The notes under the pieces are model-generated. The model ran no database searches. It was not told the origin of the DNA and saw only the letters and a list, made by a program, of their open reading frames with translations. Made by a program: the position numbers and the translations under genes. A DNA stretch of 57,913 nucleotides, counting the filler, from Porpidia crustulata (lineage: Eukaryota): the NCBI GenBank assembly GCA_964255105.1. It is 6 parts of 6 records of this genome, joined end to end, with 100 filler letters (N's around TTAATTAATTAA, not from the genome) between each part and the next. Parts side by side here need not be neighbours in the genome. Positions count along the whole stretch, not along the records: positions 48,355 to 57,913 come from CAXUWE010000921.1; 5 more parts are not named here. One strand, 5' to 3'. This document shows, piece after piece, positions 5,215 through 57,913 of this stretch (position 1 is its first letter; every line of letters starts with the position of its first letter).

Positions 5215-7812
5215 CTACAAATTATCACCATATCCAACATCATAAAACCCCCCATGCTCCGCCCCCATATGATCATAAACCTTACCACCCTCCGCAAACG
5301 TCTTCATGCACACCCAGCACAGATGTGTCCCGCAGACCTTGCACTGCATGTGGTTGCAGCCGTCTCGCTTCTGTATCGTACAGCCGCACTTGGGGCAATC
5401 CCGCGCGTCGTTCTTCTTTTTCCACTCCGCAAACACGTCGTCACCGACGCGGGCGATCTTGTACTGGGCGCAGGTAAGGCCCTCGTGGCTGATAGCGCCG
5501 CACTGGGTGCAGATGGAGGCGAGGCAGGTGGCGCAGGTAAAGATGCGGGCTTCCTGTGATACTTTGTAGACCTGGACGCAGTCGGCTGTGGAGCAGTATT
5601 GGTACTCTGCCGGGTGGGTGCGGATGTGGCGGGTGAAGGAGCGCTCAAGCAGTTGATCGAGTTGGTTGCGGGTTAGGGTAGCTTCGAGCTCGGAGAAAGG
5701 CAGAATGGCTTGGCATTTAGCTCCGGAACCGAGGCACCGAATGGGGATGTTCTCGTCGCCCGAGGAGAGACATTGGTTCACAAAGCACTCCTTGTCGTAT
5801 GAGTGACCGCACGGAGTTCGGTATTCATCTATGATTCCACACCAGCACACAGCGCACGTAGTGGACTCTTCGACATTCAAATGGGGCGAAGATGATTGAG
5901 AAGACTCCTCCTGAAGAACAGCCTTGGCCCAATTGGCATCCTGGGATGATCCATGTATTACAATTGTTTTCCGACTCGTTGTGACGTTGAGACGCACGGC
6001 GGTCTTACCTAATCTTTCAACAATCCTCCTATATCCAGTTTGATGTGCTGATAGAGATACGCTGTCTTCCAGATCAAGAGTGGTAGTGGATGTTGCGAGA
6101 TCATCAATGGTTTTGATTAGGACCGACTCGACAATGGTCATATTTTCCTCGCTCCCATACAAGCTAAGGATACTCTTTTTGGCGTTGCGATAGATAAAAA
6201 CCTCATGTGTTTTTCCAAGGTCATTCAGAAAAGCCATACCTTCTGATTTCAAAAAGAACTCATGCCAAATAATGTCTGTGGCCCCTCTTGCCGTATGCCC
6301 ATTGAGGATCTTCTCCACTTTAGCTTTAGCCTTCCCCAGCTCATGAGCAGAACTAGAAATGATGTGTAAGATGGTATAACGATGCGACTGATCTGCAGAG
6401 GGATAAGTTTTTATTTCGAGATAGTCGCTTGTTCCATAGCCTCGCTGTACATTTGCGAGTTCCGATGAGATCGCAGTATGCATAGCGGTCATGATTGAGA
6501 ATTTGGCCTTGACCATATGTGACAGAAATATTTTCGAACCCCCAAGCTGAGGCAGCTTATAGCCATGAAAGTCGGTGATTGCTTTCTTGGCTTGATCCAT
6601 TGTTGAAAAGGACGCAGTCGCCTTGATCTGCGGACCTTTGTTACTGTCAGGCAGAATCCAAGTCTCAACAGTTCCTACTGAAGATAAAAGTATCTGGATA
6701 GCTTGGCCAATTTCTTCGGCACTGGACGAGTACGAAGGATCTCCGAATGTGATATTGCGGAGTTGGCGACTCCCACAAGCCTGCTTTAGATTTTTTGTTG
6801 TGGTAGATGTGTCCAAATTGCCTACTTTTACAAAACACTGCCATGGCTTTACGTCCTTGTTGACGGTTATTCTCCAAGTCGGCATTCTATTCAAGATCTT
6901 TGTATCATTTAGTCTTCGTGCAACGTCTTCCATGGATTGCGTCGAGGAAAACTCCATGGTTGCAACTTTTGAGGGCTGATACCATGTACAGCTAACATTA
7001 CACATTTGCAGGCGTGCTGTGGACGAAGCGGTAGGACTGATAGTTAGAACAGCTCCACCAGGGCCGAATTTGACGAGAGCTCCACCTAAGTCTCTTGTGT
7101 TTGACTCCAAAGCCTTTGTTGATTGCAACGTCTCCTAATTCTGTCAGTCAACTCACAATTTAGTTGAGCGGATTCTCACCTGATCTGGAGTCAAATCGAG
7201 CGACTTGTCTCCTGTATTCTTGACATCATGCTGAAAGCGACATTGGTCTCCATTTTTACATGTCCCACGGATGTAATACACACATTTGACTTGAGCAAGA
7301 GGACCAGAGTTATCAGCCAAGGGAACTGTAGCCAGCGTTTCGATCGCCTGGCATGAGATCTCTTCTTTATCTTTGACATCGTGCCGGAAGCTACAGCTGT
7401 CTCCGCTCCTACAGCCACCCAAATTGAAGAAACGACAGCTAACTTGGGTAGCAGGTTCAGTTGTATCAGACAAGGGCGCTTGGTTAGGCTGATTCAGGCC
7501 ACGGTTCCTGGCTTGCTGGAAATTCGATTCGTGCAGAGACGCTTCTTCACCTGTCTCATCATGTCGAAACCGACACCTCTCGCCGTATTTGCAGGTCCCA
7601 GACTTGAAGAAGCGGCAGCTCACTTGAGCAACAGGGTCCGAAAACTCAGTAGATGGCTTTCTGGCATCCTCTGTTGAGAAGCCATTGATGATTGCGGTCG
7701 CAGATGTCTTAGATTGCTCCTGGTTATCTAATCGAATATGTTCGAAGTGACATTGTGCGCCCCTCCGGCAGCCACCCTCGGTCAAGAAAAACTTACAAAC
7801 GGACATTATCAT
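5215..7812 (-). CDS. CCCH zinc-finger (x4) + RRM-like + RBR (RING1-IBR-RING2) E3 ubiquitin ligase; 2 exons (7812/7806..7180, 7134..5215)
   Basis: Four CCCH fingers lie in ORF 7153..7812. A 45-nt GT..CTGAC..AG intron (7179..7135) joins it in frame to ORF 5215..7128. That ORF has RRM-like segments (FVKVGNLD; ATASFSTMDQAKKAI), RING1 (CAVC..CGHSYDKEC), IBR (CSTADC..CATCLASICTQC..HEGLTC) and RING2 with the catalytic GCNHM motif. Confidence 0.9.
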
Positions 7813-9576: not shown

Positions 9577-9676
9577 NNNNNNNNNNNNNNNNNNNNNNNN
9601 NNNNNNNNNNNNNNNNNNNNTTAATTAATTAANNNNNNNNNNNNNNNNNNNNNNNNNNNNNNNNNNNNNNNNNNNN
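9577..9676. other. Artificial contig spacer (44N-TTAATTAATTAA-44N)
   Basis: Identical 100-bp linker occurs five times; its core has stop codons in all six frames. Confidence 0.98.
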
Positions 9677-11989: not shown

Positions 11990-13300
11990 CTACTTCTTCT
12001 TTGTCACTGCGCCTTTACCGAAAAAGTCGCTCATCTTCTTCATGCCAGACGTATCGACCTTCTTCAAATCTCTCAAGCCTCTTGTTTCTCCCAACTTCTT
12101 TTTCTTCTCTTCTTCCTCTTTCTTCCTCTTCTTCTCCGCCCTCGTCTCTGCTGCCTCGTCATCTTCGTTCATGCCTCTTTTACGGCTGAAGTCGGATAGA
12201 GAACGTGAGGCTAGTACCTCGGCTCGCAACTTGGAGATATGTCTAAGGTATTCGTCGAGGGGTTTGAAATCAGTTGAACCCTCGACGGAAGAGAGGTGAC
12301 CATTCAATGTCGCCGCAAGGGGCACAGGAATGTATGCGGAAATTATGTATGACAGGGCCGTACGAATTCGGAAGAGGTGCTTGATATCGTCTGTCGCTGT
12401 CGGGGTATGATTTGAGTCTGGTATGGTAATAGTTGTGTGTGAGGAGTCAGATACTGCAGATTCAATAGTGGAAGTGCTCGATTGCGAGTCTGCAATATCG
12501 GATGGTAAAGGAGTATGAGCAGTCGCCTCATTTTGAGATCCACCCGCAGTATCAGACAGGGAGCTTTGTTCGCGTTTGAGCCCCATTACTGGCATCTCCA
12601 GAGCTTTACTTATGAATCTCTCCTCCATAGTCGACGGCAATCCTGTAGCGACCATCGTCTTAGCCTTATCAAGGAGCTCTTCCAATAACTTTTGAGTACT
12701 CAAGCGGTGCATTTTCTCATCGCTAGCTTTGACTATATCGCACACTGAGATCATTCTTTTTTCCAGAAGATCCCTTTCTTGTTTATTGCTCGACACATAC
12801 TTGAAGTGTTTCGAGTTCTCGCAAAGGTCATCAAATATGTCGTCAGCCGACAGAAAGAGCTTCTTCGAGTGCAGTGAAGGAAGCAACAGGAATAGTGGAT
12901 CAATGGGAGTTGCAATGAGCAATTCAGGACTTTTAATGATGTAGCCTTTAGACACTGGGCGATCATCGTGAGCTCCTCCATCAACATCCGTTAGAGCATG
13001 TTTCTCCAGGTGTTCGTAGGAACAGTGATCTGATTTGGACGGTTTCCCAGCACTTGGATTCGATGAATTGTTTTCATTTTTCAACTGCGACGAAAGCAGC
13101 CAACTGTGATGGCTAGACTTGGGTGCTGCAACTCTAGTGAACTCGAAAATACCCTTGACAGGACAGAAATAATATCGACTTGGCTTTGTTGATCGAGGAT
13201 GCGCCAGCGTACATATCCGAGCGTTGGGAGACGTCCCTTCTGGTAGTATTAGCAATTTCAAGGGCTCTGAGGCCTGTAATTCGCTATCAGTTCTCAACAT
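11990..13300 (-). CDS. RNH202: Ribonuclease H2 subunit B (Ydr279/Rnh202 family)
   Basis: Intronless ORF; first in-frame ATG at 13300. Motifs: LLILP..ICTLAHPR..RYYFCPVKGIFEFT, LLIATPIDPLFLLLP, and C-terminal LKKVDTSGMKKMSDFF (PIP-box-like). Confidence 0.88.
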   Translation of the reverse strand: MLRTDSELQASEPLKLLILPEGTSPNARICTLAHPRSTKPSRYYFCPVKGIFEFTRVAAPKSSHHSWLLSSQLKNENNSSNPSAGKPSKSDHCSYEHLEKHALTDVDGGAHDDRPVSKGYIIKSPELLIATPIDPLFLLLPSLHSKKLFLSADDIFDDLCENSKHFKYVSSNKQERDLLEKRMISVCDIVKASDEKMHRLSTQKLLEELLDKAKTMVATGLPSTMEERFISKALEMPVMGLKREQSSLSDTAGGSQNEATAHTPLPSDIADSQSSTSTIESAVSDSSHTTITIPDSNHTPTATDDIKHLFRIRTALSYIISAYIPVPLAATLNGHLSSVEGSTDFKPLDEYLRHISKLRAEVLASRSLSDFSRKRGMNEDDEAAETRAEKKRKKEEEEKKKKLGETRGLRDLKKVDTSGMKKMSDFFGKGAVTKKK

Positions 13301-13502
13301 GTTCTTATGCGCTGAAAGAATCTTTGATTTAGTCCCTATATCGGTGAAGATCTTGAGGGAACCATGAATGAGAAGACGTGACGCGATCAATTTCGGGCGA
13401 CGTGACAGCCGCCCGGGGGCCGTTTTGACGAGCGGCTACCCCTAGGGAGCCCTGAAGACTCTGGAGTTGAGGGGCAAGTGGTTACCACTTCACCCATTGA
13501 TA

Positions 13503-19248: not shown

Positions 19249-19348
19249 NNNNNNNNNNNNNNNNNNNNNNNNNNNNNNNNNNNNNNNNNNNNTTAATTAA
19301 TTAANNNNNNNNNNNNNNNNNNNNNNNNNNNNNNNNNNNNNNNNNNNN
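19249..19348. other. Artificial contig spacer
   Basis: 44N-TTAATTAATTAA-44N. Confidence 0.98.
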
Positions 19349-23273: not shown

Positions 23274-26200
23274 TTACTGAGGACGACGAGTTCTTGGACC
23301 ACTTCGTCCCATGCGCTTCTTCGTAGGCGTTTTTTTCGATGCATCCCCACCTCCTTCAATAAAACTCATAAGCTCATCAATGCTGCGGGAATCTAGTCCT
23401 CTGCTAAGCCGAGCGTCTCGGCCAGTAACCACATCTGCGGGTGATTGCCCAAATTGTGGGGGTGGCCTTGTACCTAATGTTACTCTGGGTGTGAGTAACA
23501 CTTTACGCATTCTTCGCGCCTGTATGTCCTTGGCATGTTTGGCGATAGACACGGCATTCTGGGTCAGCTGCTCGAGCCAGCTTTCTGACTCCTTTGTATT
23601 TCGGTCATCTGGCCCGAGCTTTGCCAGGAAGATGCTGTAGGCATCGCGCATACGGTTGACAGCGCCTTTCGGATCTTGATCCAATGCCAAAGCCTGCGCA
23701 AGCTGGAAAGAAAGAGTAGCAGTATTTACGGATTGCTTGCCAGAGACCTCCTCGCTGATAGCAAGGGACATTTCGAACCACAATCGCGATTCATGGTAGT
23801 ATTTCAAGTGCTGGAGCATTACCGCCGCGTTATTGATGGTAGTGATCGAATCTGGGTGATTGAGGCCGTATATTATTTTCCAGAGCTCGAGTGCGTGTCT
23901 CATGCACGATAATGCAACTGTTGTATTGCCGTTACCGTGCTCAAAGAGACCGAGGTTGAGATAACTTAGGATAGTCTCGTTCGAGTCTATGCCAAGCGTC
24001 CGTTCTGATATTATGACTGCCTTGTGAGCTAACTCAACGGCCGCGTTCTTCTCGTCAAGCTGATAATACAGCATAGCGAGCTGGTGATAGACTCTAGCAA
24101 CTTCGGGATGTAAGATGCCGTAGATTTGCTCATGTAAAGAGAGCGACTCAAGGAGAAGCTCTTGCCCAATCTCTTTCTGATTTTGCATCATCGACATCCG
24201 CCCGGCCTCCAAAGCCTCTTCGGCAAGAGCACTCTTAGCGCTTGCATCTTTGATTATAGGTACCAAATTGACTATGTCATCCGATGTGAAAGTGACTTGT
24301 GGCTCCAGCGTGACCGACTCGTTCAAGGAGCTTGGGGAATTGCGACCGCCATTCTTTCTTTTCTTCTTATGGCTTCCACAGTTCGTAACATGACCATTGG
24401 ATGCAGAATGGCCAACATCACCATTGGTTGACGGAGCAGACTCATCGTGTTCAGATGAGAACTCTTGGGCAAATCGATAATCCCTGGCGATGAGCTGTAG
24501 ACCCAGCTTTAACGCAATCTCACGTAACGTTTGTACACGTTTGATGCTAGCAACCCAATCTGCTTCGAGCACATATCTGTATCGAAGCTGCACTTGGGAC
24601 TCAATTTCGGACTGTAGCCTCTTTGGATCAAGTTTTGTAAAAGAGTAATTGGCATCTTTGTAAAAGAATTTGAGGTCTTCATCAAGCTCTGCGCGTGGTG
24701 CCTTATTTAGGCTTGCGCCTAATAAACAGTTGAGGAGATGGGCTAGACAAGCGGTCGCAAAAGCTGTGGGTAAGTCCTTCAAGTAATGATTCGCCAAGTG
24801 TTTGAATGCTCGTGCAACCATTTCCTGGGTAGCTAAGGCCGTTAGGGCACGTAGTCGAGAACCTTGCTCTTCAGCGAGAGTAGCAAGCTTGCCCAGATAC
24901 CGAATATTTATACCTCGCTTGTGCATCAGCCGACCCAGGGATTGGCCGTCCATAGGAAAGCCAACTTCTCCTTCCTTCAGATCTTGTACCTATAGTCATA
25001 TCTGTCAGTGAACGTTTTGGGCAATTATCGATATTCCGAAGCTCACTAATTCGGGTATGATATTTTGATGAAGATAATCGCAAACTGCTCTGACAGCTTG
25101 CTCGTCGTTGGCCCATTCCTTCTTCTCCTCCTCTGTCTGGGGTACCTGCCCACAACAGACATCCGGATTTAATGTTAATGAGAACGCGGAAATGTCGACA
25201 CGTTCATGATCCTTATCGGTCTCTGCCGACCCAGCTTCAGTGGCCGACAAAGCAATTTCTTGGCCGCTTCCAGTGCCAATAGGAGTTTCGGATGTTACTT
25301 TTTCACCCTTTTTGGAATTTTCATCGCTTTCAGAACTCTTCCTTCGCTTTTCGACCTCGTCCCGCACGTAATCACCCATTTTGAGCCTCCAATATGCTTC
25401 GATGAGCTCTGGTCTCATCACCGTCATACGATGAGGGTAATTGCGCTCTTTAGGTTTTGAAGCTTGATCATCCACATCCGTCCAATAAGCCTCGAGCCAT
25501 TGAATGTCAAGTGGTGTCAGCCTGTACAGGTCTAATATGTACTTCCGGCCATCGGTGCCCAGTAATCCTTTGGTTTCCACGCTACCTTCAAGGTCGTGCT
25601 TCTTTCCTTCCTTATCCCAAACTGAGTGTGGTTTGACTCTAAAAGCTTTAGAGACTTGCGAAAATGTAGGCACGAATGCAGTGTTCACTGCCACAACATC
25701 CCGACCTTCAACTCCACCATAGTCAACTTGGTGTTCTTCCGGCTCTCGTTGCTTGAATATGCCCGGCACTATGCTCTGCGCAACGAGGCGCTTGCCTAGA
25801 TAATCTACGATGATAGTGCCAGGCGTTGCCAATCCGGGAACATCGAGCTGGTTGACGGCTTTGACACCAATCACATCCTTTCCAACTGCCACACGGGCTG
25901 CTTCATCCCCGCCTTCCGAGGTGAAAGTGCCGACGCCGTCAGCACCAAAAGAGTAGAAAATGTTGTTGTAAACAAAAATTTGAGCATTCTTACTCTCGGT
26001 AGGGTTCAGGGGCGAAACCTCGCCACGTGCGACCATCACGGCTCCTCGAGCAGCTGCCTCATTAAACTCGGCGAACACCTTTGAAGTCAGACGTTCCCTA
26101 AAAACTCGATCTTGAACAGTCTCTCGAGGAAGCTCTCGAGTGGTCTGTATCTCTTCGTTCCAGTCTCGTAGGGTCTCCGTATTTTCTATACCAGACATGA

Positions 26201-27444
26201 GATAGGTCTCCTGCGTCCTGGTAGGATCCGGTTGGTGAGCACCGAGCGAGGAAGCTGCAGGAGCAACAAGCCAAGGACTAGAGGGTATGGCATTTGTAAG
26301 CTGGAAGTTTGCCAAAGGATCCCGCTTGTTGTTCTGTTCAATAAGAGCAGCGAATAAGCCATCAAACGACGGCGAAAGCATGGAGATCAAAGAAAGGAGA
26401 GAATGTGCCGAGGCATTCTTGGGAGGCGGTCGGGGGAATGGATCAAATCTACTGTTCGAAGATTTGTTCACGTAGAAACCAGAGACATGAGAGGTTATTT
26501 GATATTGTTCACCCTCGTTTGTGGTCAGCTGCAAGTAGAGGTGATGGCCTTTCTGCCGGAGATGGTGGGGGGGAGGATTCCATGCCGACGCAGTAATTGA
26601 CTTGATTGTTTTCGATAGCTGTTCTTGGATAGGGGGGAGAAGGGTGCGTATCGAAGCTGGGGCATCGAACTTGTAATCTGTTAGAGCATTGGAGGCACCC
26701 ACCTGCTTTGTATCGGCAGGTTTCTCTTTGGAGTGGGAGGCATCTTCGGGCTCTGTCCATGGCGACACCGTATCATGCAAAGATAACCCAGCAGAAATGC
26801 CATGGAGAGTGTCGACCCGGTTCCCAGCAGCCCCAATGATTTCTCGTACACGGACCATGTGCATTCGCGCCTCCTTCTCGTTGTACGGGTCTTCTATCAA
26901 GGTGAACACAGACCCAGCAGCAAGCCCCTCGACCTCTGACAGCTCGATGAAATCATTGATTCGTTGACCGTTGTGTTCGAGGTGGAAACAAGAATATTGA
27001 AAAGTGCTCGGCTTTTCGACTATAGATTGTCTCAGGTCTTGTACCTGCTCTTGGGTTGAGACCTAGTTGCGGGTGAGCCAATGCCTCGGGGAAACGGAAA
27101 AGGAGATAGCCACCATAATCTGAGTCTCATAGGGTTGATGAGGTAACTTGACCCGGACTGGGAAGACAGCTACAAGAGGGTAAGCCATTGATCATTACAA
27201 CCATATCCCAACTCACGATCCACGTTTTGCTCATCTTTGGTTCCACCTTGCGGGGACGTCCGTTTCCCCTCATCTTGAACAATATCTTTCTGCTCGGGCA
27301 GATTGGCTTTTTCGGGGTTTGAGGTATCTGCGTGATGAATTTTGAGTTAGATACCGTACTGAAGGATATACCTGTGCGTGTCAAATACGCATGCAAACAC
27401 AAGAGCTCACCGGGAGATATCAAGTCGCTATTTTGCTCTCCCAT
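23274..27444 (-). CDS. CLU1: Clustered mitochondria protein (CLU/TIF31); exons 27444-27411, 27327-27217, 27169-27114, 27062-25047, 24989-23274
   Basis: CLU_N (VKLPHQPYETQIM|VSTQEQVQDLRQSIVE), CLU domain (RDWNEEIQ, DYLGKRLVAQSIVPG, GTDGRKYILDLYR), central PMDGQSL..HKRGINIRYLG and C-terminal TPRs; introns are GT-AG and keep frame. Confidence 0.96.
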
Positions 27445-28919: not shown

Positions 28920-29019
28920 NNNNNNNNNNNNNNNNNNNNNNNNNNNNNNNNNNNNNNNNNNNNTTAATTAATTAANNNNNNNNNNNNNNNNNNNNNNNNN
29001 NNNNNNNNNNNNNNNNNNN
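28920..29019. other. Artificial contig spacer
   Basis: 44N-TTAATTAATTAA-44N. Confidence 0.98.
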
Positions 29020-38588: not shown

Positions 38589-38688
38589 NNNNNNNNNNNN
38601 NNNNNNNNNNNNNNNNNNNNNNNNNNNNNNNNTTAATTAATTAANNNNNNNNNNNNNNNNNNNNNNNNNNNNNNNNNNNNNNNNNNNN
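38589..38688. other. Artificial contig spacer
   Basis: 44N-TTAATTAATTAA-44N. Confidence 0.98.
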
Positions 38689-48254: not shown

Positions 48255-48354
48255 NNNNNNNNNNNNNNNNNNNNNNNNNNNNNNNNNNNNNNNNNNNNTT
48301 AATTAATTAANNNNNNNNNNNNNNNNNNNNNNNNNNNNNNNNNNNNNNNNNNNN
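48255..48354. other. Artificial contig spacer
   Basis: 44N-TTAATTAATTAA-44N. Confidence 0.98.
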
Positions 48355-51300
48355 CGGCACATCTATACCCCCCACCCGATTTGATCCATCGATAGCCCAC
48401 CGGACATACCCCCATCTCCTTCAATTTCTGCTGCGCCTTCATCTCCTTCTCTTTCCGCTCCTGCTGTTCCTTCCTCACCCGCTCCAGCTCCGCCAGTGCC
48501 GTTTCCCGTGCGATCCGCGCCATCTGCTCTTGGAGACGGGCTTCTTCGCGTCGGCGCTTAAGCTCGTTGAGTTCTGCGTCATCTGCGGCGGCTTGAGCCG
48601 CGAGCTGAGATAGGTGGGTAGACCTCGCGGCTTCGAGAGTTTTCGCGTTCGTGAGAGCTTCATCTCGGCTTTGGATTTGCTGGCCGGCAAGCTTTTCATT
48701 GTGAATGGCGGCTTGCTTGTCTGCTTGGAGCTGATTCCAGATTGAGTCGGAAACACCTGGGTCTCGAGTTTCCGAGGCGTCGTTATGGTGACATTCCTGA
48801 TCGTCCTTATTAGGGACATCCCGTTCTGTGACCGTAGACGTAGAAATAGTGGGCATATGTGGTTGCGGGTTATCTAGGCTTTGTGTTAATTCTCGTGGCG
48901 ATGCCGTTAAGCTCGATATTGGCAAATCAGTTGATCTGCCTTGCCGTTCTTCAAGCATCCTTTGCGTACAGCCAATAATATCCTCTGAAGATATGGTAAG
49001 AGGCCCTGTTGCTGGTGAGCTAGCTTTATACACGGCGCCTATCATATTTCTTGCTAAGGTCTGAACATCTCTAGCATTTCCCCAATTCCGAGTACGAGCA
49101 AGCTTTTCCAGCAGGTCTGCCATGAGTTTGCAGGTAGGGCTTCTGCTGTCCTTCAAGGCTTGTGCTTCTATCTCTTTATCTTTCAGGCAATTCTGTAGTA
49201 TCTGCAAACAATGGCGTGGAGTCAAATTTGGGAAGGTGATCTCTTCTGGGAAACGGCTTGATAGACCAGGGTTCATGGCCATCAAATCATTGATTTCTTT
49301 GTCATATCCGGCAAGGATGACAACTATTTTCCCCATAAACTTTGGTTTTGTAAGTAGATCAACAAATTCGTCAAGTGCTTCTTTTCCAAATGAACTACCA
49401 GAAAGCCGGTAGCTTTCATCAACCAGAAGAACTTTACCAAGTGCCTTCTCAAGCACTGCTTTGGTCTTGGGACCTGTCTGTCCAACAAATTGCCCGATGA
49501 GCTCAGAGGCTGAGGATTCGATGACTTCGACACTGGACAGAAACCCCATGTCAAAATATACTTGACCTATCTTTCGAGCCGTGGTTGTTTTCCCAGTACC
49601 TACAATCGTTATTGAAAGTGCGATCTCACGCCGGAATGGCAAGAGATTTGATAAACATACCTGGAGGGCCTTTGAATAAGAAATTCGTAGGAATCATCTC
49701 ACGCGAGCTTATACCACGAGCCTTCATAACTTGTCGCATGTGATCGTATCCTTCCAATTTTGCAATAATCAGCTCGCAGCCAACCACGTCCTCAAACAAT
49801 TTCTGTAAATTAGTGGAGGCTTGAGCTCCCCTTTCAAAATCAGGATCAAAATCTTTTGGCTCGAAGACGACATCAAAAGATTGATCAACCGAAGGTTTGG
49901 CAGATTGTCTGGCTTGCCAACGACCTTTCGCAGAGCCAATGAGGTTTTCTATCTCGCCAGCGTTGCCGAAATTTGGTCGAACTCGAGCACGACTTAGAAC
50001 CTCAATGGCTACAGATTTTGCTTCTTTGGTGGCCGCAAGATCTTGGTGTTTTAATTTCAAATCCAGAATTTCAAATAGCTCTTGATCTGTAAAGTCTTCG
50101 AAATTGAAAGCATTATCAATCGCAAACCTGATTTATCAGCTAAGTAGGTGCGTGAAAAGTCTAGGATGCTTCCCGGATTACCTTCGTGATAGACCTGGAT
50201 TTACATTCTGAAACATTGTGGTCATCTGTTCTTTATATCCGAGTAGTAGCACGCATCGATCCTCCCCTGGGACGCTCTGTACCTCGGCCACAATCGTATC
50301 AATTACAGCGGTCTTGAAAGGGTCGCTTTGGTTACCGGTACCACCACTGCCCGAATAAAGGCCGTAGAATTCATCGATGACTAGTATCTTGCCTACCGTA
50401 TTTGTTAAGATCGCCTTGGTATTCTGCTCTGATTGTCCTAAGACACTACCAGTGAAATCCGCAGGATTCTTGGTGACGACTACAAGAGACAGTGATTAGG
50501 ATGACGATTCAGGATTCTTCAACGCCGAAGGATTAGCTTACCTTCGCCATTGCTCAGGAGACCAATATCAGCCAAGATTTGACCATATAGTTTAGCGACA
50601 GATGTCTTCCCAGTACCTGGAGAGCCGAGGAAGATGCGGTTGAGTGAGACTTCAATAGGAGACTGTTCGGCCAATTCTCGTTTGTAATTGATCTCGATGC
50701 GGCCAATCATTTGCCGAATCGATTGCTTGACAGTACTAAGGCCTGTCAGCTCTTGCAGCTTCGCCCAAGCTTTACTCTTCAAGATGGCGGACGATGGATT
50801 GGGACCTATGAGATCTTCCTTGGAGAGCATGTAGTCATTTGGGGTTAGCCCGTGCCGACGCTCATGATTGACTCGTTCAGCTTGACGTTCGGTGACCTTA
50901 GAAAAGCTGATTTGTAGCGCTCGCGCGTTGCCAAAGCCAGGACGACCTCGACTGTTGCCGACACGCCGGGCAAGTATGCGCAAATAGAGACCATTTCTTC
51001 CACCTTCGACTTCCATCTTCCCACCGTATTTTTTATCTATGATTTTGCCCAACATCCATAAAAGTTCGTTATCTTCGTAGTCAGCGAATTGCAGTCGGTA
51101 TGGGACTCGACTATTCAGTCCTGGATTGTGCTCAAAGAGTTTTTCCATTTCCTTATTGTAACCAGCGACGATAAAAACGATCTTTCCAACATTTTCTTCC
51201 ATTTCAGCTAGCAAAAAGTCAAGTACTTGGCGTCCTCCAAAATTGTGCTGATCCGCAAGTTGGTAGCTTTCGTCGACGAACAGGGCGCCTCCTCCAGCAT

Positions 51301-54300
51301 TTTGGATCTCTTCCAAATGCTTCTTGACCCCACTCACGCCATCATTAGCAAGACGTGAACCTGTCGTTTCGATAAATGAAAGCCCTGGGAGCACCCCCAG
51401 AGACGTAAGAGCTTTGGCATAAAGTCGAGCAACCGTTGTTTTTCCTGAATGATCGATTAGAAAGGCAGTGAATCGAAGCCATCTTTGACATAAGGAGTGG
51501 TAGATTCAAAATGAGATGACAAATAGTATCATTCCATGCGTCATAATTCGAATCAATTGTGCGAGATACTATGCTTGAGGTGAAGAACATACCTGTCCCT
51601 GGGTTTCCTAGCAATGCTACGTTGAAGCGCTCTCCCTTGACATCTGTTCCCTGCCGTAGGCTCAAATCGACCTTAGATTTTATTCGCAGGATTTGTGACT
51701 TGACTTCTTCCAATCCGACCATATCCATGATCGCGTCAATCGCTTCATTGCTCACACTTTCTACACTCTTCTGGCGTTGCCACTCAAGTACCGCGGATGA
51801 TAGTTCTTCAGGGCCCGAAGACTGAGTATCAGCAGGCGTAGATAGTTGAGGCAGCTCCGTTGATTCTTGCGGAACCGTCTTTGGGTCATGGGCCGTAAGT
51901 TGTTTCTCTGCCGTCGCTTTTGGCTCCATTACTAGGGTGGGTGGCTTGTGATCCAAGGCAAGAATTGCTGCAACGTCCTTTTGCTTTTGCTGAATGGCCT
52001 GCAATCTTTCCTTTGCAACCTGTTGGTCGCGCAAATTCTGGGTTGCAATATCCATCTGGTCCTGCAAGTCCGCCATCTGCCTCGCGTGCTCTTGTGCTTT
52101 CCTGTCACGTTTCCGCTGGTCTTCGAAAGCCTTGTCCAATCTTTGCTGGAGATTCTTCGCTTCCCGTTCACACATGGGACACGCTACAGGAGCAGCTGCG
52201 TGGCATTTCCACTGTCGTATGTGACCTTTTGGACAAGCCGCATTCAATATATGTTCACAAGCCATTTTAGAGTGATCATGGAGCTGGTGGCACCGCTGGG
52301 GGCATAGATGGTTTCCGCAACTGAGCATTGTGCCACATGGCTCTTTACACCCTCCATCAGGACACTCGGTCTCGAAGTCGATTGATTCTCGTAAGAGTGC
52401 CCTTCGGTCTGTATGCCTCTCACATTGGACAGGAAATCCATCGTAAATGTGCCCGCCATTCTTTAGTAAATCGAAGAACCGGGTCCAAAGACCTCTCCCT
52501 TTGGGGGATCTAATAAACGTCTGCGCATTTCCGATCAAAATGAGCGCATTGCGTGCGCGAGACAGCAGTACGTTAAGCCGCTCAGGGGAAACCATGAAAC
52601 CGATATCGCCGTTCGCATTACTTCTGGTCAAGCTTGCAATAACAATCTGTAAGAATTTAAGTTTGGTCTGTTCTACGGATAGAGCTAGGGGAAGCTGCCC
52701 ACCTCGCTTTCTTCACCTTGGTAATTATCTATTTGGGGTTTATTAGCCATGTATTCGCGTAAGAATTCATAGCTTAAGGATGACAAAAGATCGAGACTCA
52801 AAGCCTCTTTACAAAGTGGAGGAGCGATTTTCGAGTAAAGGCTCGAGGCAGCCGGCATGACCTTAAAACCACAAGGATTCTAATTACGCAGAGAAGGGGC
52901 CGGCCACAGTCATAGAAATGGAGTAGAGCTACGTACCGATCGTTGAAAGGTGTATGGGTCGCTTTGACAACGTTGCACTTGCGGCAGGAAGAAGACCGGC
53001 ACGCACCAAATCGAAGGAGTCTAGATCATTTAAGATTGGGTCGTTTTCTTTACTCAAGAGATTTCGCAGTAGCTGTAGTTGGCCAAGATATGGTGTTAGA
53101 ACCACGATCTTGTCGGTACCATACCCTTGCTGCGCGAGGTATCGCACACATTTCAAGACCATTTCAGCCTCGAAAATATTACGTTTCGATGAGAAAGCAG
53201 TTGTCTCATTCGAGTTCTTGATTTCTTTATTTTCATCTTCTGCATTGTTGTGATTGACAAATATGAGGTTGTCGCTGAAGCCGCGAAGGTCAGCGCGATC
53301 CATTGTCTTCGGTGCATCCACAAGGTCAGGATACGTCAGAGAGCGAACAAGCGAGGAAATCTCGGGGCGCATTCGATGTTGCTTCAGAAGTGTCTGGTGC
53401 GGATATGCTTTTATGAGGAGTCTCTCAAATAGTGATCTATTCAGGTCATATCCTTCTCCCTTCTCTACACTAAGGAGATAATTACTGACTTTCGGCCTTA
53501 GCTGCTTGTGGTCGCCGATAAGAATCAATTGTTGTGTATTAGGCCCAAGAGCTGTGAGAATGTGGCTTTCGAGGATTTCGCCGGCCTCTTCGACTAGGAG
53601 AACGTCACGGGATGCCGCCTGAAGATCACGACTGTACTTGGCTGCTGCTGTGGTTGTACAGCCAATGATTCGTCTCTTACTCAATATATCCGCGTTATTC
53701 TTATTGAACATACTTTCGAGCTTACTCTGGCTATTGTTGTAGGCTTCGATAACATGGTAAAGATCTGAAACTTGCTCTTTAAGCATTTCAAGCTTCCAAG
53801 ACGTAAGTGCTGCATGTCTTGCCGGAATAATCATTTGCCATACGCTACGCGAATTCTTTGACACGTTCTTCTCAAATATACCTGCATCGAGGCCCCTAGT
53901 CCACCTGTCCAGAAGGTAAAACTCGTCGACAGATTTGCCCCGTTTCCCCACCCGGGTCATCCCATCCTGTGCTTTTGGTATAGTGAAAGCCTCATAGAAC
54001 GATGGACCGTCAGAAAGAAATTCAAGATACTCCATTATATCGCTCCTCTGGACGTTCGTTGCCTTGTATCGATCGAACGCGGTTCGGAGACGACCTTCCA
54101 ACAGGTTTGTCTCAGACTTCAGGTCATCGATCAAGCCCCAGGGTAGTTTACTCTGTTTGGATGTATTTCCCTGTTCGTAAAGACTCAAGGGTTTCGTCCG
54201 TTGTGTTGACTTTCCACCAATTCGGACCATGTCTTTTGCGTCTATCCCGATGTCAAGGAGATCTTCGAGAAACTGATCCAAAGCGTGATTAGTAAATGTC

Positions 54301-55906
54301 ACGACAAGAATAGTTTTTTCTGAGAATTGCAGGATAATCTTAGCAATCAGTGCTCCAATAAATGATTTTCCAGTTCCTGGAGGGATGACTAATCAGCATT
54401 ATGATTAAGAGCCATCAAGTATAGGAAGTGATTACCTGGTGGACCTTGAATCAAGCTGACCCGCTGCCGGATCCCCATTAACAAGGAGGCCCTTTGCGAA
54501 TCATCTAATTGGACTGATTGAGGTGTTTTAAGCATGGATTGGAGATCTAGATTGGGATGAGACTCAATTCTTTCGATCAATCTAGTCGGTAGATCTGACG
54601 GTTGCTTCATGACGCTTTCAAGACTCCAAAAGAGCAACTCCTCGACAAGCGGCAGTTGAGTTAGGTCTTGCAGTCTCTTCAGGACTGGCTCATAAGAGAA
54701 AACGGCGGTGTCAATCTGTATCAATCGAAATTCTTTTGCCATCTTCAGTCTGAGCATTGCTTTGGACGTGCTCTGTTCGCCTGTGAATTGCACTATAACA
54801 ATTGGGGGTTTCCTTACCAGAAGATCGACGTCCCGATATATGGTTGGGAAAGCGGCAATTTCACCATCTAGGATAAGACAGGCTAAGGACTGATGCTTGA
54901 AGATGTTGCGATTTTCTAGCAGAAAGGCCTTGCGGTCTTTCGGCTTTACCCGGCTGAGTTGAGGTAAGTCGGAATTACACTGCAGTTTCATACCCCATGG
55001 GCGACGCTTCGTTGGAAGCCCAGAATCCATGTCCACAATGGATAGCCCGTTCACGACAATGCCTCTGTGGCGCCCTTTTTTCTTACCCATCGCAATCTGG
55101 AGCTCTTCCCGCATATCGCTCAGCATATCTTCACGGAGGAGCCGAAATTGATTGTCAAGATGTAACGCTAGCGTCTTGCTGTCTCCACCTGATTGCTCAA
55201 CTGTATCAGCAACTCGAAGAAATGGCGATTCCAGAGAGGTAAGCTCATCAGCTGTAGGCGGAATTGATATCTGTCGGAAATCCACGAAGTCGTTGTCATG
55301 CCGTCCTCCGGGCCCTGCTACATCGGTGGAATGGCTTGAGGACTCGAGAGCAGAAAGAATGTGTTTAATCTTCTGGCCTACAGTGCGGATCTCAAATACT
55401 GGGGATCCGAGAAGGGAGGCTTGTAGAGTTGGCCCTCTCGCGACTTCCAGGTACGTTATACGCACGTTAGAAGGTAGCGAGATCAATTCTAACAACAACC
55501 ACCCAAAGCACTGCTGTCCGTCCAAGGACAATTCTCCTTGAATATACGATCTGGCAAAGGCATTCCAAAAGATTGGCGGCTCTACCATTTGCAAGATTAT
55601 ACGTTGTAAAAATTCCCCTCCACAGATAACCTTCAGTGCTGGGTCTTGAATGTACTGAAGTATTTTCGTCGTTGGGCCATTAAAGAATCTAGGAGAAGCA
55701 TCGAGTCGCATGCAGGTCTGTATGGACATAAGACCCTGAGGCTGAGATAAAATCTTTTCTATACTTGTGGCTGGATCTGGTTGCCCACACAGAGCTTCAA
55801 TAAACAGATCTCCATCCTTGGCACCTTTCAAAAGTCTTTCTCCGCGTATGACGGAGTTGAAGAACTTTGAAAGCTTAGAGTCCCGCAATGACAATGTAGC
55901 CTGCAT
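48355..55906 (-). CDS. ZNFX1-like UPF1/SF1 RNA helicase + NF-X1-type Zn finger + three CbbX/SpoVK-type AAA+ modules (~2300 aa; last residues lost at contig end); exons 55906-54436, 54376-52937, 52728-52703, 52646-51593, 51444-50542, 50479-50182, 50127-49661, 49599-48355
   Basis: Seven GT-AG introns give one continuous frame. ZNFX1-type blocks: RHDNDFVDFRQISIPPT, HLDNQFRLLREDM. Helicase motifs: QGPPG|TGKS, TNHALDQF, VEEAGE, IGDHKQLRP, QHRMRPEIS, TI|DNYQGEE, RLNVLLSRAR. Cys/His cluster: CGNHLCPQRCH. Three AAA+ modules: GNPGTG|KTT/FVDESY, GSPGTGKTS/VIDEFY, GPPG|TGKTT/LVDESY, each followed by NPGLxxR and [FW]GNA. Confidence 0.93.
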
Positions 55907-56584
55907 CTTTATCGTGATACTTCCAGAGGCTTGCAGTCTTTCTAAGTGAACCGAATCTATTAATCTGTATCAGTGTGGCCTCGTCTTCTTCTTATTCAAG
56001 GACAAGCAATATGGAGGTAATGATCATCGAAACAAGAGAAATTTGTTTAAGAATTCGCGTGATATCTAGACCGCGTTCCAGCGTAAGCAAGCAGAATGGT
56101 GTGAATGGTAAGGATGGTCGTTTGTGAATGCAAGCTGCCAGGGTTCACATGCTGTGCGACGCGAGCCCGCATATACTATTCGTTATCCTCCACCAAATCG
56201 TAATTCTTGATGAGGGTATGGTAATCTTTCCTATTGATGCTCGAGCGTAAGTAGTATTCCTATCACAATATTGAAGGCTTAGGTGACCCATCCAGTCAAT
56301 CACCTCGAGTCTGACATGGCTCCGCAGAGAAGCTGATCGAATATTTATGCAGTTTTTCATTTGCCTGACACAAAACTAAACATGTCGGACGTTCCACCGT
56401 GTACAATACTTGCTCGACATACAGATTTCTACTGAGAGACTTGGAAAAAAACCAACGATTTTGGAAATAACGATTCCCAATATGCCACGATATCTTTTTG
56501 ATTTTCAATCGAATTGTAATAACATCGCGCAATTGGGTGCAATTATCGCCCTTAGCTTTACATACCTGATGTCGTATCTTCTCA

Positions 56585-57457
56585 TTATAATTTATGCCTC
56601 TTTTCTCCACTAGCAATTTTTCTAAACTCATCCTGCGGTATTCCACTCACAAATCTCTCTAGGCCGCCCAAGACTTCCGCGACCGTTTGCCCGTCCATCA
56701 TGTCTCTCTCCGGCTTCCTAATTAAAGCTTTGATCTTGACCAAACTATCACTATTCAAGTGATCTCCAAGCTTATCCCCCACCTCTTTCAACACCTCTTC
56801 CAGAAATATATCTCGGTTATCTTTGCTTGTCTCGAATATCTTATTGACGAATCCAACCTGTAGCATCTCCTCAGCCGTGATTCTCTTGCTCATGATCAGC
56901 GCTTCGTTCGCTTTGCTGATACCCAATCTCTGCACAAAAGCTACACTTGCGCCACCTTCGGCAACGAGCCCTAGACTCGAAAATGGCGTAAGGAGGAACG
57001 CATGCGGAGCAGCATAGATAAAGTCGGAGAAAGCGATAAGCGCAGCGGAGAGACCGACTGCGGGACCGTTAAGTGCGGTGATGAGGATGTTGGGATGGGT
57101 ATAGAAAGCGTTGGTAATCTCAAGGTTGTTGGATACGAAATTGCGGAGTGACTCGCGGCGGACATCGGTTCCTTCTGAAATCGTGCGAGACATTGTAACG
57201 TCTGCTCCTCTGCAGGCTATGTCAATTGATTGCCAATGCCGGATGTTACTAGGAAGTGCTTACGCAGAAAAGAAGCGTCCTTTGCCAATCAAGATAGTGA
57301 TGTAGATTCCATCACGCCTTCCAGCTTCGCGCATCAAGCTGGAGAGGCGGTAGTAGAGATCTTGGGTTAGGGCGTTGAGCTTCTTCTCAATATTGAGTGT
57401 GATGATAGCAATTTTGCTTTGAGTGGTTAAGGTGATCTGCTCCTCAAGGGTAGACAT
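56585..57457 (-). CDS. ECI1: Peroxisomal delta3,delta2-enoyl-CoA isomerase (crotonase fold); exons 57457-57264, 57209-56585
   Basis: GKGRFFSA|GADV, ALNGPAVGLSAALIA, PFSSLGLVAEGG; C-terminal -HKL resembles a PTS1 signal. Confidence 0.92.
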
Positions 57458-57913
57458 CGTTGGAATGGGTAAGTTGAAGTTGCTCCTGGAGATGGAGAAA
57501 GCAGTCGTTAAGCGCGAGTGAATAGAAAGAGTTGTTGAAGGCGCTCAGGGAGGCAGGAATACAGTGTATAGTCTCAAACCACCGTCAAACAAATAAAAGT
57601 GATCATTCATGCTGCTATTCTAAATTATATCTATGTCCGAGCCGTTGTGACGAATTGGCTGGTGGTGTGGGGTAGCATGGGAAGGTAAGTACATTCGGCG
57701 GAGAAGAAACTAATTGTGGACATCATCCTCCGGTCATTGATGCCCACATCAGTTCAAGACACGGCGCACGGTGTGATAGTCCACCAGCCTCATGATGATG
57801 ACTAACTATCGCGATTTATTAGGTATGGCATTATCGACAAAATAGTTCTTGTATAGATTTAGGGAAAGTATAACGGTACACCCCCTTTGTTTACACGTAC
57901 ACCCCCCTCCCAC

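Follow-up and report, generated by a model that had tools for sequence, protein, structure and literature searches.

A ZNFX1-family helicase joined to a triple CbbX-type AAA+ cassette in Porpidia crustulata and other fungi

The helicase-AAA+ gene

The window analysed here, 57,913 nucleotides of DNA from Porpidia crustulata (assembly GCA_964255105.1), contains a gene for a ZNFX1-family helicase that has a triple CbbX-type AAA+ cassette in place of the ubiquitin-ligase tail. This is a widespread, automatically annotated and apparently unstudied fungal architecture. The gene was pointed out in an original prediction made from sequence alone, which described a spliced protein of ~2300 residues at 48355..55906, and both the gene model and the domain order hold. 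Pfam scans, searches of solved structures in the PDB and the location of motifs agree on a ZNFX1-type helicase, an NFX1-like finger, three CbbX/SpoVK-type AAA+ modules with Walker A and B motifs, and a Cys motif at the C-terminal end.

The coding region (48355..55906, minus strand) is defined by open frames and GT-AG introns. Its start ATG is at 55906, and the predicted coordinates proved exact. Exons 1–4 are at 55906-54436, 54376-52937, 52728-52703 and 52646-51593, and exons 5–8 at 51444-50542, 50479-50182, 50127-49661 and 49599-48355. The seven GT..AG introns are 59, 208, 56, 148, 62, 54 and 61 nt in length, and the spliced length of 6904 bases gives 2301 codons with zero stops. Each change of frame coincides with a GT..AG intron, and once this is spliced out a conserved motif is restored; alignment with 100 full-length homologues shows no private insertions of more than six residues in the gene model.

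The window consists of six pieces, with sizes falling from 9576 to 9559 bases, joined by spacers of the form N44-TTAATTAATTAA-N44. Features that touch a piece end are thus cut by the assembly and not by biology. The gene lies in piece 6 (48355-57913), with its 3′ end at the first base of that piece, and the spacer at 48255-48354, which separates pieces 5 and 6, marks the point where the gene is cut. Thirteen columns at the protein end, conserved in >80% of the 100 full-length homologues, are absent from the window protein. The gene runs off piece 6 at 48355, and therefore ~13 codons and the stop are missing. The terminal Cys motif of the original prediction, MGVCPVGYRWIKSGGGYRCA, is present but is not the true terminus; by comparison with the homologues it is the first part of a longer C-terminal motif. 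The gene appears near-complete and apparently functional, and it belongs to a family that extends across Pezizomycotina and Agaricomycetes. A pseudogene is ruled out, as there are zero stops and every motif is kept.

The helicase half

Over its first 1140 residues, the protein has the same layout as ZNFX1 of animals: a helical N-domain, a Upf1-like superfamily 1 (SF1) helicase and an NFX1-type zinc finger. The N-terminal domain (residues 1-190; 55337..55906, minus strand) is predicted to be all-helical and armadillo/HEAT-like. This is based on an AlphaFold2 model of homologue P0122, built from a 17-row alignment with a predicted local distance difference test (pLDDT) score of 69.7, which has 11 helices at residues 7-188 with pLDDT 81-92. 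Pfam scans of exons and homologues gave no family for this domain; N-terminal exon 1 aligns to ZNFX1 residues 417-476 and 666-708.

The helicase, with its 1B/1C region, comprises residues 200-1045 (52449..55309, minus strand) and spans the introns at 54435-54377, 52936-52729 and 52702-52647. A Pfam scan of the seven larger exons found AAA_11/AAA_12 matches in exons 2 and 4. Motif I, GPPGTGKS, is split by an intron (54445-54363), and motifs II (LVEEAGE, 53597-53577) and VI (LSRAR, 52565-52551) follow on the same strand. Motifs I–VI are all intact, and are conserved across 101 aligned proteins, i.e. the window protein and the 100 full-length homologues. The nearest solved relative of the helicase is human ZNFX1 (9q9z_A, E 2.5e-43), followed by Aquarius (2.6e-17); solved Upf1/Nam7 chains give E values of 1e-9 to 6e-11. 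The comparison of predicted structure with ZNFX1, suggested at the outset as a check, points the same way, with 9q9z as the top Foldseek match of the P0122 model (E 5e-25). Among solved structures, the helicase is closer to ZNFX1 than to other SF1 helicases. A protein-atlas search with P0258 gave only leads below 0.8, the ZNFX1-named clusters coming first.

The zinc-finger stretch, from CPDGGC to CPMCERE (residues 1073-1140; 52164..52367, minus strand), was located by alignment to ZNFX1. The end of the helicase together with this stretch aligns to ZNFX1 1281-1425 (CPDGGCKEPC...CGNHLCPQRCH versus PEGGCSLPC...CG-HVCTRACH), and the Cys/His part, CPDGGC..C..H.C..CH, to 9q9z_A 1370-1425, within a stretch matched at E 6.1e-16. 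The putative zinc-ligand Cys and His columns are conserved across the 101 aligned proteins, and there are only about two fingers. Of the profiles proposed in the original prediction, AAA_11/AAA_12 and AAA matched; zf-NF-X1 gave no match to the Cys/His stretch at E up to 5, nor did the RZ finger match the tail. A charged helical segment and a variable low-complexity linker follow (residues 1141-1269; 51777..52163, minus strand). The segment is coiled-coil-like in sequence appearance and of low conservation, and corresponds to the first of two predicted coiled coils.

The available part of a study of ZNFX1 (10.1101/2025.10.14.682297) describes an immune helicase with an armadillo dimer interface, a helicase with 1B and 1C insertions, a rigid stalk of NFX1 fingers, and Miz and RZ E3 domains. 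The window protein has the helical N-domain, the Upf1-like SF1 helicase and the NFX1-type zinc fingers in the same order. Human ZNFX1 (PDB 9q9z) ends in the Miz and RZ ubiquitin-ligase domains, whereas in the window protein their place is taken by three CbbX-type AAA+ modules, followed by long helices and a C..C..H motif unrelated to them. An orthologue of ZNFX1 in the full sense would have the Miz and RZ E3 C-terminus; here AAA+ modules fill the region after the zinc finger.

A hint of defence is that the helicase is also matched by the profiles of MkoA, the helicase of the Mokosh defence system (PADLOC PDLC03920/03921), with E 3.3e-34 for exon 2 and 1.6e-69 for P0128. Mokosh is a bacterial system, however, and ZNFX1 scores higher for exon 2 (151.9 versus 116.4 bits). 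MkoA has a partner or fused nuclease, which is absent from the window protein.

The triple AAA+ cassette

The three AAA+ modules, all on the minus strand, were delimited by Pfam, PDB searches and motifs. Module 1 (residues 1270-1548; 50792..51776) has the Walker A motif GNPGTGKT at 51608-51437, split by the intron at 51592-51445, and the Walker B motif LFVDES at 51283-51266, as well as NPGLNSR and FGNARAL. Module 2 (residues 1549-1832; 49824..50791) is interrupted by introns at 50541-50480 and 50181-50128; its Walker A is GSPGTGKT (50626-50603) and its Walker B LVIDEF (50384-50367), and NPGLSRR is also present. In module 3 (residues 1833-2105; 48944..49823), Walker A GPPGTGKT is split by the intron at 49660-49600, a CbbX-type pore loop, GQFVGQTGPKTK, recognized by alignment with CbbX, is at 49495-49460, and Walker B LLVDES at 49429-49412 is accompanied by NPGLSSR and WGNARD.

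Pfam gives three AAA (PF00004) matches, the one on the 98-residue core exon of module 2 being weak (17.1 bits against a cutoff of 21.2). The AAA_lid_6 family is clear for module 2 (41.2 bits, E 1.7e-10) and under the cutoff for modules 1 and 3 of the window protein; it exceeds the cutoff in homologues P0128 and P0124. The nearest solved relatives of modules 1 and 3 are CbbX/EccA1 (E 5e-21 to 7e-27). Each module thus belongs to the CbbX/EccA/SpoVK type of AAA+, with a core and AAA_lid_6, and with CbbX and EccA as the nearest solved relatives. Across the 101 aligned proteins, Walker A (GxPGTGKT), Walker B, the arginine-containing NPGLxSR and GNAR are kept in all three modules. The Walker B consensus is DEAY, and the window protein has DESY, DEFY and DESY in modules 1, 2 and 3.

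The pore loop GQ[YF]VGxTGPKT is kept in module 3 only, and modules 1 and 2 do not have the aromatic pore-loop residue. The module 3 segment LIGQFVGQTGPKTKAVLEKALGKVLLVDESYRL aligns residue for residue with CbbX, and includes the position of the CbbX tyrosine that we take to be the substrate-threading pore-loop residue. CbbX (red-type Rubisco activase, PDB 3syl/3syk/3zuh) and EccA1 (9lur) have the same unit of AAA, AAA_lid_6 and NPGxxSR that is found in each module, and the pore loop that module 3 has in common with CbbX can be written GQ[YF][VI]GxTxPKTK. CbbX and EccA have a single AAA module, however, whereas the window protein has three, fused to a helicase.

Structural modelling of the cassette was performed with P0028, a 1026-residue entry that contains the triplet and tail (AlphaFold2, 50-row alignment, pLDDT 82, predicted template modelling score 0.61). 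With VIA-align, the best single-module fold match is CbbX (Z 21, root mean square deviation (rmsd) 3.3-3.8 A over 271-276 residues, 30% identity), and the next is Vps4 (Z 17.6). Modules 2-3 superpose on the D1-D2 pairs of ClpA, Hsp104, Cdc48 and Rix7 over 464-486 residues (rmsd 5.4-6.8 A, Z 16-17), and modules 1-2 fit NSF, more loosely. What the model hints at is a stack of tiers like that of type II unfoldases, and not a planar ring of six modules. The likeness to ClpA, Hsp104, Cdc48/p97, Rix7 and NSF, in which adjacent modules would superpose on stacked D1-D2 pairs, has its limits: these unfoldases have two tiers and modules of the Clp or classic Cdc48 type, whereas here there are three modules, of the CbbX type.

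The original prediction drew a parallel with the animal protein RNF213, which has six dynein-like AAA units in one chain together with E3 and RZ domains. The parallel is one of analogy only: both are giant proteins with an AAA array and a small C-terminal Cys/His element. The AAA array of RNF213 is of a different kind; the three modules here are of the CbbX type, the tail has no match to any RNF213 PDB chain, and no RZ match was found for it in Pfam or with a PDB profile. The window protein is not RNF213-like in the sense of family membership. No RNF213, dynein or midasin chain is among the matches listed for the triplet model by Foldseek or VIA, an absence that means little, as VIA left 71 of 1000 chains unaligned (those with <30 or >3000 residues, or outside its library).

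Fungal NOD-like receptors (NLRs), which are signal transduction ATPases with numerous domains (STAND NTPases), are recognized by a central NACHT or NB-ARC domain. Neither was matched in the Pfam scans, and the protein does not belong to this class. Matches to nSTAND3 (36-43 bits) are limited to profile positions 21-100 of 155, fall on the module 3 P-loop, and are overlapped by a stronger AAA match.

The C-terminal helices and tail motif

Module 3 is followed by a variable linker, then by a conserved RDxGVxDxxWxxLQ motif, by long helices and, last, by the tail. In the window protein, the conserved motif is RDPGVSDSIWNQLQ (48766-48725), and together with the long, helical, coiled-coil-like segment that follows, it makes up residues 2165-2280 (48419..48766, minus strand), as judged from conservation and AlphaFold2. 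The long helices are at 916-937 and 949-994 in the P0028 model, and this is where the second of the predicted coiled coils has its support. The final feature, at 48356..48418 (minus strand), is the first 21 residues of the family C-terminal motif, cut by the end of the piece and identified from the family consensus.

The consensus of the complete motif is MGVCxxG[FY]xWIKQxxGYRCAGGSHxVSDxxLG[LIM]-COOH, ~35 residues. The strict pattern occurs in 91 of the 120 listed relatives and in 90 of the 100 full-length ones, and most of the other ten have variants or are cut. In the P0028 model the motif forms three short strands (pLDDT 81-91), and the tail may be described as a family-specific C..C..H beta-motif at the extreme C-terminus. 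Its identification as an RZ finger is not supported, as three Pfam scans and a PDB profile search gave no match. With the limit set at E 10, no Pfam family of relevance was matched by three tail pieces; a PDB search with a 12-sequence tail profile, run to the same limit, brought up only two fluorescent proteins at E 4.6 and 5.6, which are chance matches, and no chain of RNF213 or ZNFX1; and a tail piece had no usable match in the protein-atlas search. Complex prediction with two tail copies (P0028 905-1026) and zinc scored 0.03, which weighs neither way. To call this motif a terminal effector, as in the original prediction, is a guess, as it has only three invariant possible metal ligands (C, C and H).

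One gene and probably split database entries

Two adjacent genes are rejected as an explanation of the fusion. Exon 4 (52646-51593) is a single open frame that runs from helicase motif VI through the zinc finger and linker to GNPGT, the first half of the module 1 P-loop, and there is no stop or intergenic gap between the halves.

Many fungal 'helicase-only' entries in the database (~970-1100 residues) stop at residue 970, the junction of exons 2 and 3, or at 1082. The first residue of several 'AAA-only' entries falls at 1331-1346, directly after the module 1 P-loop intron, or at an internal methionine near 1286-1288. LTR50_007101 and LTR50_007102, which are adjacent tags of a single contig, correspond to the two halves of the gene. 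Other apparent half-entries are P0121-P0134, P0178/P0033, P0147/P0039 and P0232/P0048, and several pairs share a contig. It thus appears that many of the 'helicase-only' and 'AAA-only' fungal entries each represent half of a single gene, the model having been broken at a conserved intron or begun at an internal methionine.

Three phase-1 introns (54435-54377, 51592-51445 and 49660-49600) split the same P-loop glycine codon, G-x-P-G^T-G-K, in the helicase, module 1 and module 3; the introns of module 2 sit elsewhere. The helicase P-loop intron is seen as an in-frame insertion in most of 17 relatives called as open reading frames (consensus), and its position therefore seems conserved.

The remainder of the window

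The same-strand upstream neighbour (56585-57544, minus) is an enoyl-CoA hydratase/isomerase-like gene (ECH_1, E 6e-16), whose protein ends in HKL, which resembles a peroxisomal targeting signal. Ordinary fungal genes on the pieces include one for an IBR-domain protein (5215-7134, minus), a homologue of RNase H2 subunit B (11990-13435, minus), a Clu1/TIF31-like gene with CLU, eIF3_p135 and TPR domains (23274-27062, minus), and a kinase gene, among others. The spacers, which are not biological and have no strand, are at 9577-9676, 19249-19348, 28920-29019, 38589-38688 and 48255-48354. No DNA similarity was found between the six pieces when they were compared with each other, and with an ordinary neighbour upstream of the gene, a repeat or transposon is ruled out.

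Proposed role

The best reading of the architecture, and one with about an even chance of being correct, is that of a protein-remodelling machine coupled to RNA, with a role in RNA surveillance or genome defence. The helicase would bind RNA and translocate along it. The AAA+ cassette would assemble with itself into rings and remodel protein or ribonucleoprotein (RNP); to judge from their motifs, ATP could be bound and hydrolysed by each of the three modules, of which module 3 is the only one to keep the pore loop that holds the substrate-threading tyrosine in CbbX. The tail helices and the Cys/His motif may serve in assembly or targeting. Surveillance or defence would be directed at viral, transposon or aberrant RNA, and is possibly concentrated in spores and sexual tissue.

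The cassette behind other heads

A full scan with P0028 gave 5055 representative proteins at E <= 1e-30, of which the best 150 were examined and 16 long ones scanned with Pfam. Among these 150, the helicase is present in 41 and the tail motif in 57, and a second C-terminal Cys motif, C..CGRAD.PYI.CYV.P.IVRYE, in 10, five of them with the helicase. The branch with the second motif consists of P0301, P0326, P0332, P0333, P0340, P0348, P0357, P0359, P0360 and P0367. Eight of the 150 (P0261, P0294, P0309, P0343, P0356, P0364, P0038 and P0327) have five to seven Walker A motifs, which suggests longer tandem arrays of CbbX-like modules; P0327 also carries the helicase.

The heads found on the triplet among the 16 long proteins (P0287, P0276, P0324, P0325 and P0357 among them) are NACHT_N in one, a URGCP/RHD3-like GTPase with VWA in one of 3438 residues, ankyrin in two and MSP in one, and some proteins with such heads also end in the tail motif. 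P0287 is A0O28_0032020 of Trichoderma guizhouense, in which NACHT_N (PF17100, E 1.6e-35, residues 611-838) is directly ahead of the triplet and tail; the N-terminal part of this protein is common to NACHT-WD40 and NACHT-ankyrin NLRs and to a NACHT_N plus Peptidase_C14 protein. Swapped heads would be a pattern typical of conflict systems, if the single gene models from which they are known are sound.

These findings raise the question of whether the protein is an innate-immune switch with NLR logic. The helicase would sense non-self RNA, the AAA triplet would be an oligomerizing hub in the position of NACHT, and the coiled coil and Cys/His tail would form the output that triggers cell death or shutdown. 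The NACHT_N head with its NLR-type N-terminal part, the GTPase plus VWA, ankyrin and MSP heads, and the existence of at least two alternative C-terminal Cys motifs (in 57 and 10 of the best 150 representatives) are in keeping with it, as is the immune role of ZNFX1 given in the available text of the ZNFX1 study (10.1101/2025.10.14.682297). Yet the full catalytic motifs in three modules and the unfoldase pore loop in one suggest mechanical work rather than a nucleotide switch, the tail of ~35 residues has no recognized effector fold or family, the NACHT_N example is a single gene model, and inheritance is vertical, most species of the sampled tree having a single copy. We regard such a switch as unlikely. 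The immune reading is thus unproven: the other sensor-like heads hint at it, and the vertical, low-copy inheritance hints otherwise.

Perhaps the triple CbbX AAA+, coiled coil and Cys/His tail are a swappable execution module of fungal innate immunity, a three-tier unfoldase ring attached to differing sensors: a ZNFX1-type RNA helicase here, and NACHT_N, GTPase-VWA or ankyrin heads in other proteins. In that case fungi would have, in the helicase fusion, their equivalent of the ZNFX1 or RIG-I-like antiviral sensing of animals, with mechanical work in place of ubiquitylation as its output. This is a speculation with only a small chance of being right.

Relation to RNA silencing helicases and Neurospora NCU09357

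S. pombe Hrr1, N. crassa SAD-3 and Mucor RnhA are fungal helicases of the same broad family, and RnhA has an NF-X1 finger; as far as the available text goes, their lengths are 999, 1160 and 1231 residues, respectively, roughly half that of the window protein (PMC5384783). In architecture the window protein differs from the far shorter SAD-3 and Hrr1, as the original prediction held. The same text places N. crassa NCU09357 and NCU05861 outside the SAD-3/Hrr1/RnhA cluster, and considers that these two and SAD-3 may be paralogues. NCU09357 is named 'stage V sporulation protein K' in the available portions of two sources (PMC6468284, PMC11708020) and 'ATPase, DNA/RNA helicase...' in a third, which lists it, with a ratio of nonsynonymous to synonymous substitution rates (dN/dS) of 0.349, among fast-evolving sex-associated genes beside QDE-2, an RNA-dependent RNA polymerase (RdRP) and the NF-X1 helicase NCU05861 (PMC3571971). 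It is probably the Neurospora member of the helicase-AAA family, because its name strings match those of family members; the assignment is from annotation strings only.

The protein can also be looked at as a cofactor of RNA interference (RNAi) or heterochromatin. A helicase like Hrr1, SAD-3, RnhA and nematode ZNFX-1 would mark target RNAs for small-RNA amplification by RdRP, and the AAA cassette would be an added chaperone of silencing complexes. Membership of the helicase in the ZNFX1 family, to which Hrr1 and SAD-3 also belong, the possible paralogy of NCU09357, NCU05861 and SAD-3 (PMC5384783), and the company of NCU09357 in the gene list of PMC3571971, as excerpted, speak for such a role. 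The half-length of the known silencing helicases speaks against it, and we think it rather improbable.

Family distribution and inheritance

A search with the N-terminal exon found 1053 proteins at E <= 0.001. Of the best 120, which were examined, ~100 are 2200-2440 residues long, from Lecanoromycetes, Leotiomycetes, Eurotiomycetes, Pezizomycetes, Geoglossomycetes and many Agaricomycetes, with E values for homologues of 1e-157 to 1e-248, far too low for chance matches. That similar fusions are automatically annotated in other fungi, as had been stated, is thus amply borne out. Some family records are auto-named 'nonsense-mediated mRNA decay protein'. A shorter subfamily of ~2000 residues exists, and Tricladium has both P0207 and P0078.

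A FastTree phylogeny of 101 rows was constructed from the window protein and 100 homologues from these best 120 of one search, and is not a census. In it, the closest neighbours of the window protein are its sisters from Sticta and Pseudocyphellaria (support 96). Eleven basidiomycete species have two rows each, which is counted as a hint of defence. Mycena has two old paralogue clades, and two rows are also found in Armillaria, Crassisporium, Hysterangium, Gautieria and Leucogyrophana.

Conserved, largely vertical, low-copy inheritance across Dikarya would also suit an RNP remodeller that has a housekeeping or developmental task and no part in defence. It might act in mRNA decay or storage, or set stored mRNPs free when the fungus forms conidia, develops sexually or germinates. 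The Upf1-like helicase and the mRNA decay names of some records are in line with this, and so is the expression of NCU09357, which in the available text is high late in conidiation and dependent on ADA-6 (PMC6468284, PMC11708020). Record names are automatic, however, and NCU09357 is a member by annotation strings only; the recurrence of the cassette behind heads of the NLR and GTPase types, and the dN/dS of 0.349 in the part of PMC3571971 available, fit a conflict role better. We consider a purely housekeeping protein to be quite doubtful.

It should be pointed out that several observations weigh against an RNA-coupled remodelling machine in surveillance or defence. The tree splits Ascomycota from Basidiomycota cleanly (support 100) and largely tracks taxonomy. 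Identity to Sticta is 63% over 2217 columns and the catalytic motifs are strongly conserved. In this tree of best hits, zero ascomycete species appear twice among 35 rows. The vertical, low-copy pattern looks more like that of a conserved core gene than of a fast-turning immune receptor. The stacked arrangement of modules comes from one single-chain model with moderate rmsd, the NACHT_N-triplet fusion is one protein that could be a merged gene model, and the similarity to MkoA is partly generic Upf1-like similarity. The late-conidiation, ADA-6-dependent, high expression of NCU09357 fits a developmental role too, as far as the available text shows (PMC6468284, PMC11708020). Finally, in agreement with the original prediction, no experiment or functional study on any member of the helicase-AAA fusion was found in the literature searched.

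Significance

To our knowledge, apart from RNAi and heterokaryon incompatibility, little has been established about the sensing of foreign RNA by fungi. With a ZNFX1-type helicase and an ATP motor of three modules in one chain, the family is a concrete and testable candidate for such sensing, and Neurospora, which probably has a member, offers knockout and virus systems. The protein may be a three-tier AAA+ assembly, a form that we do not know to have been described. The family also shows an apparent swap of outputs, ubiquitin ligase versus AAA+, on the same sensor scaffold.

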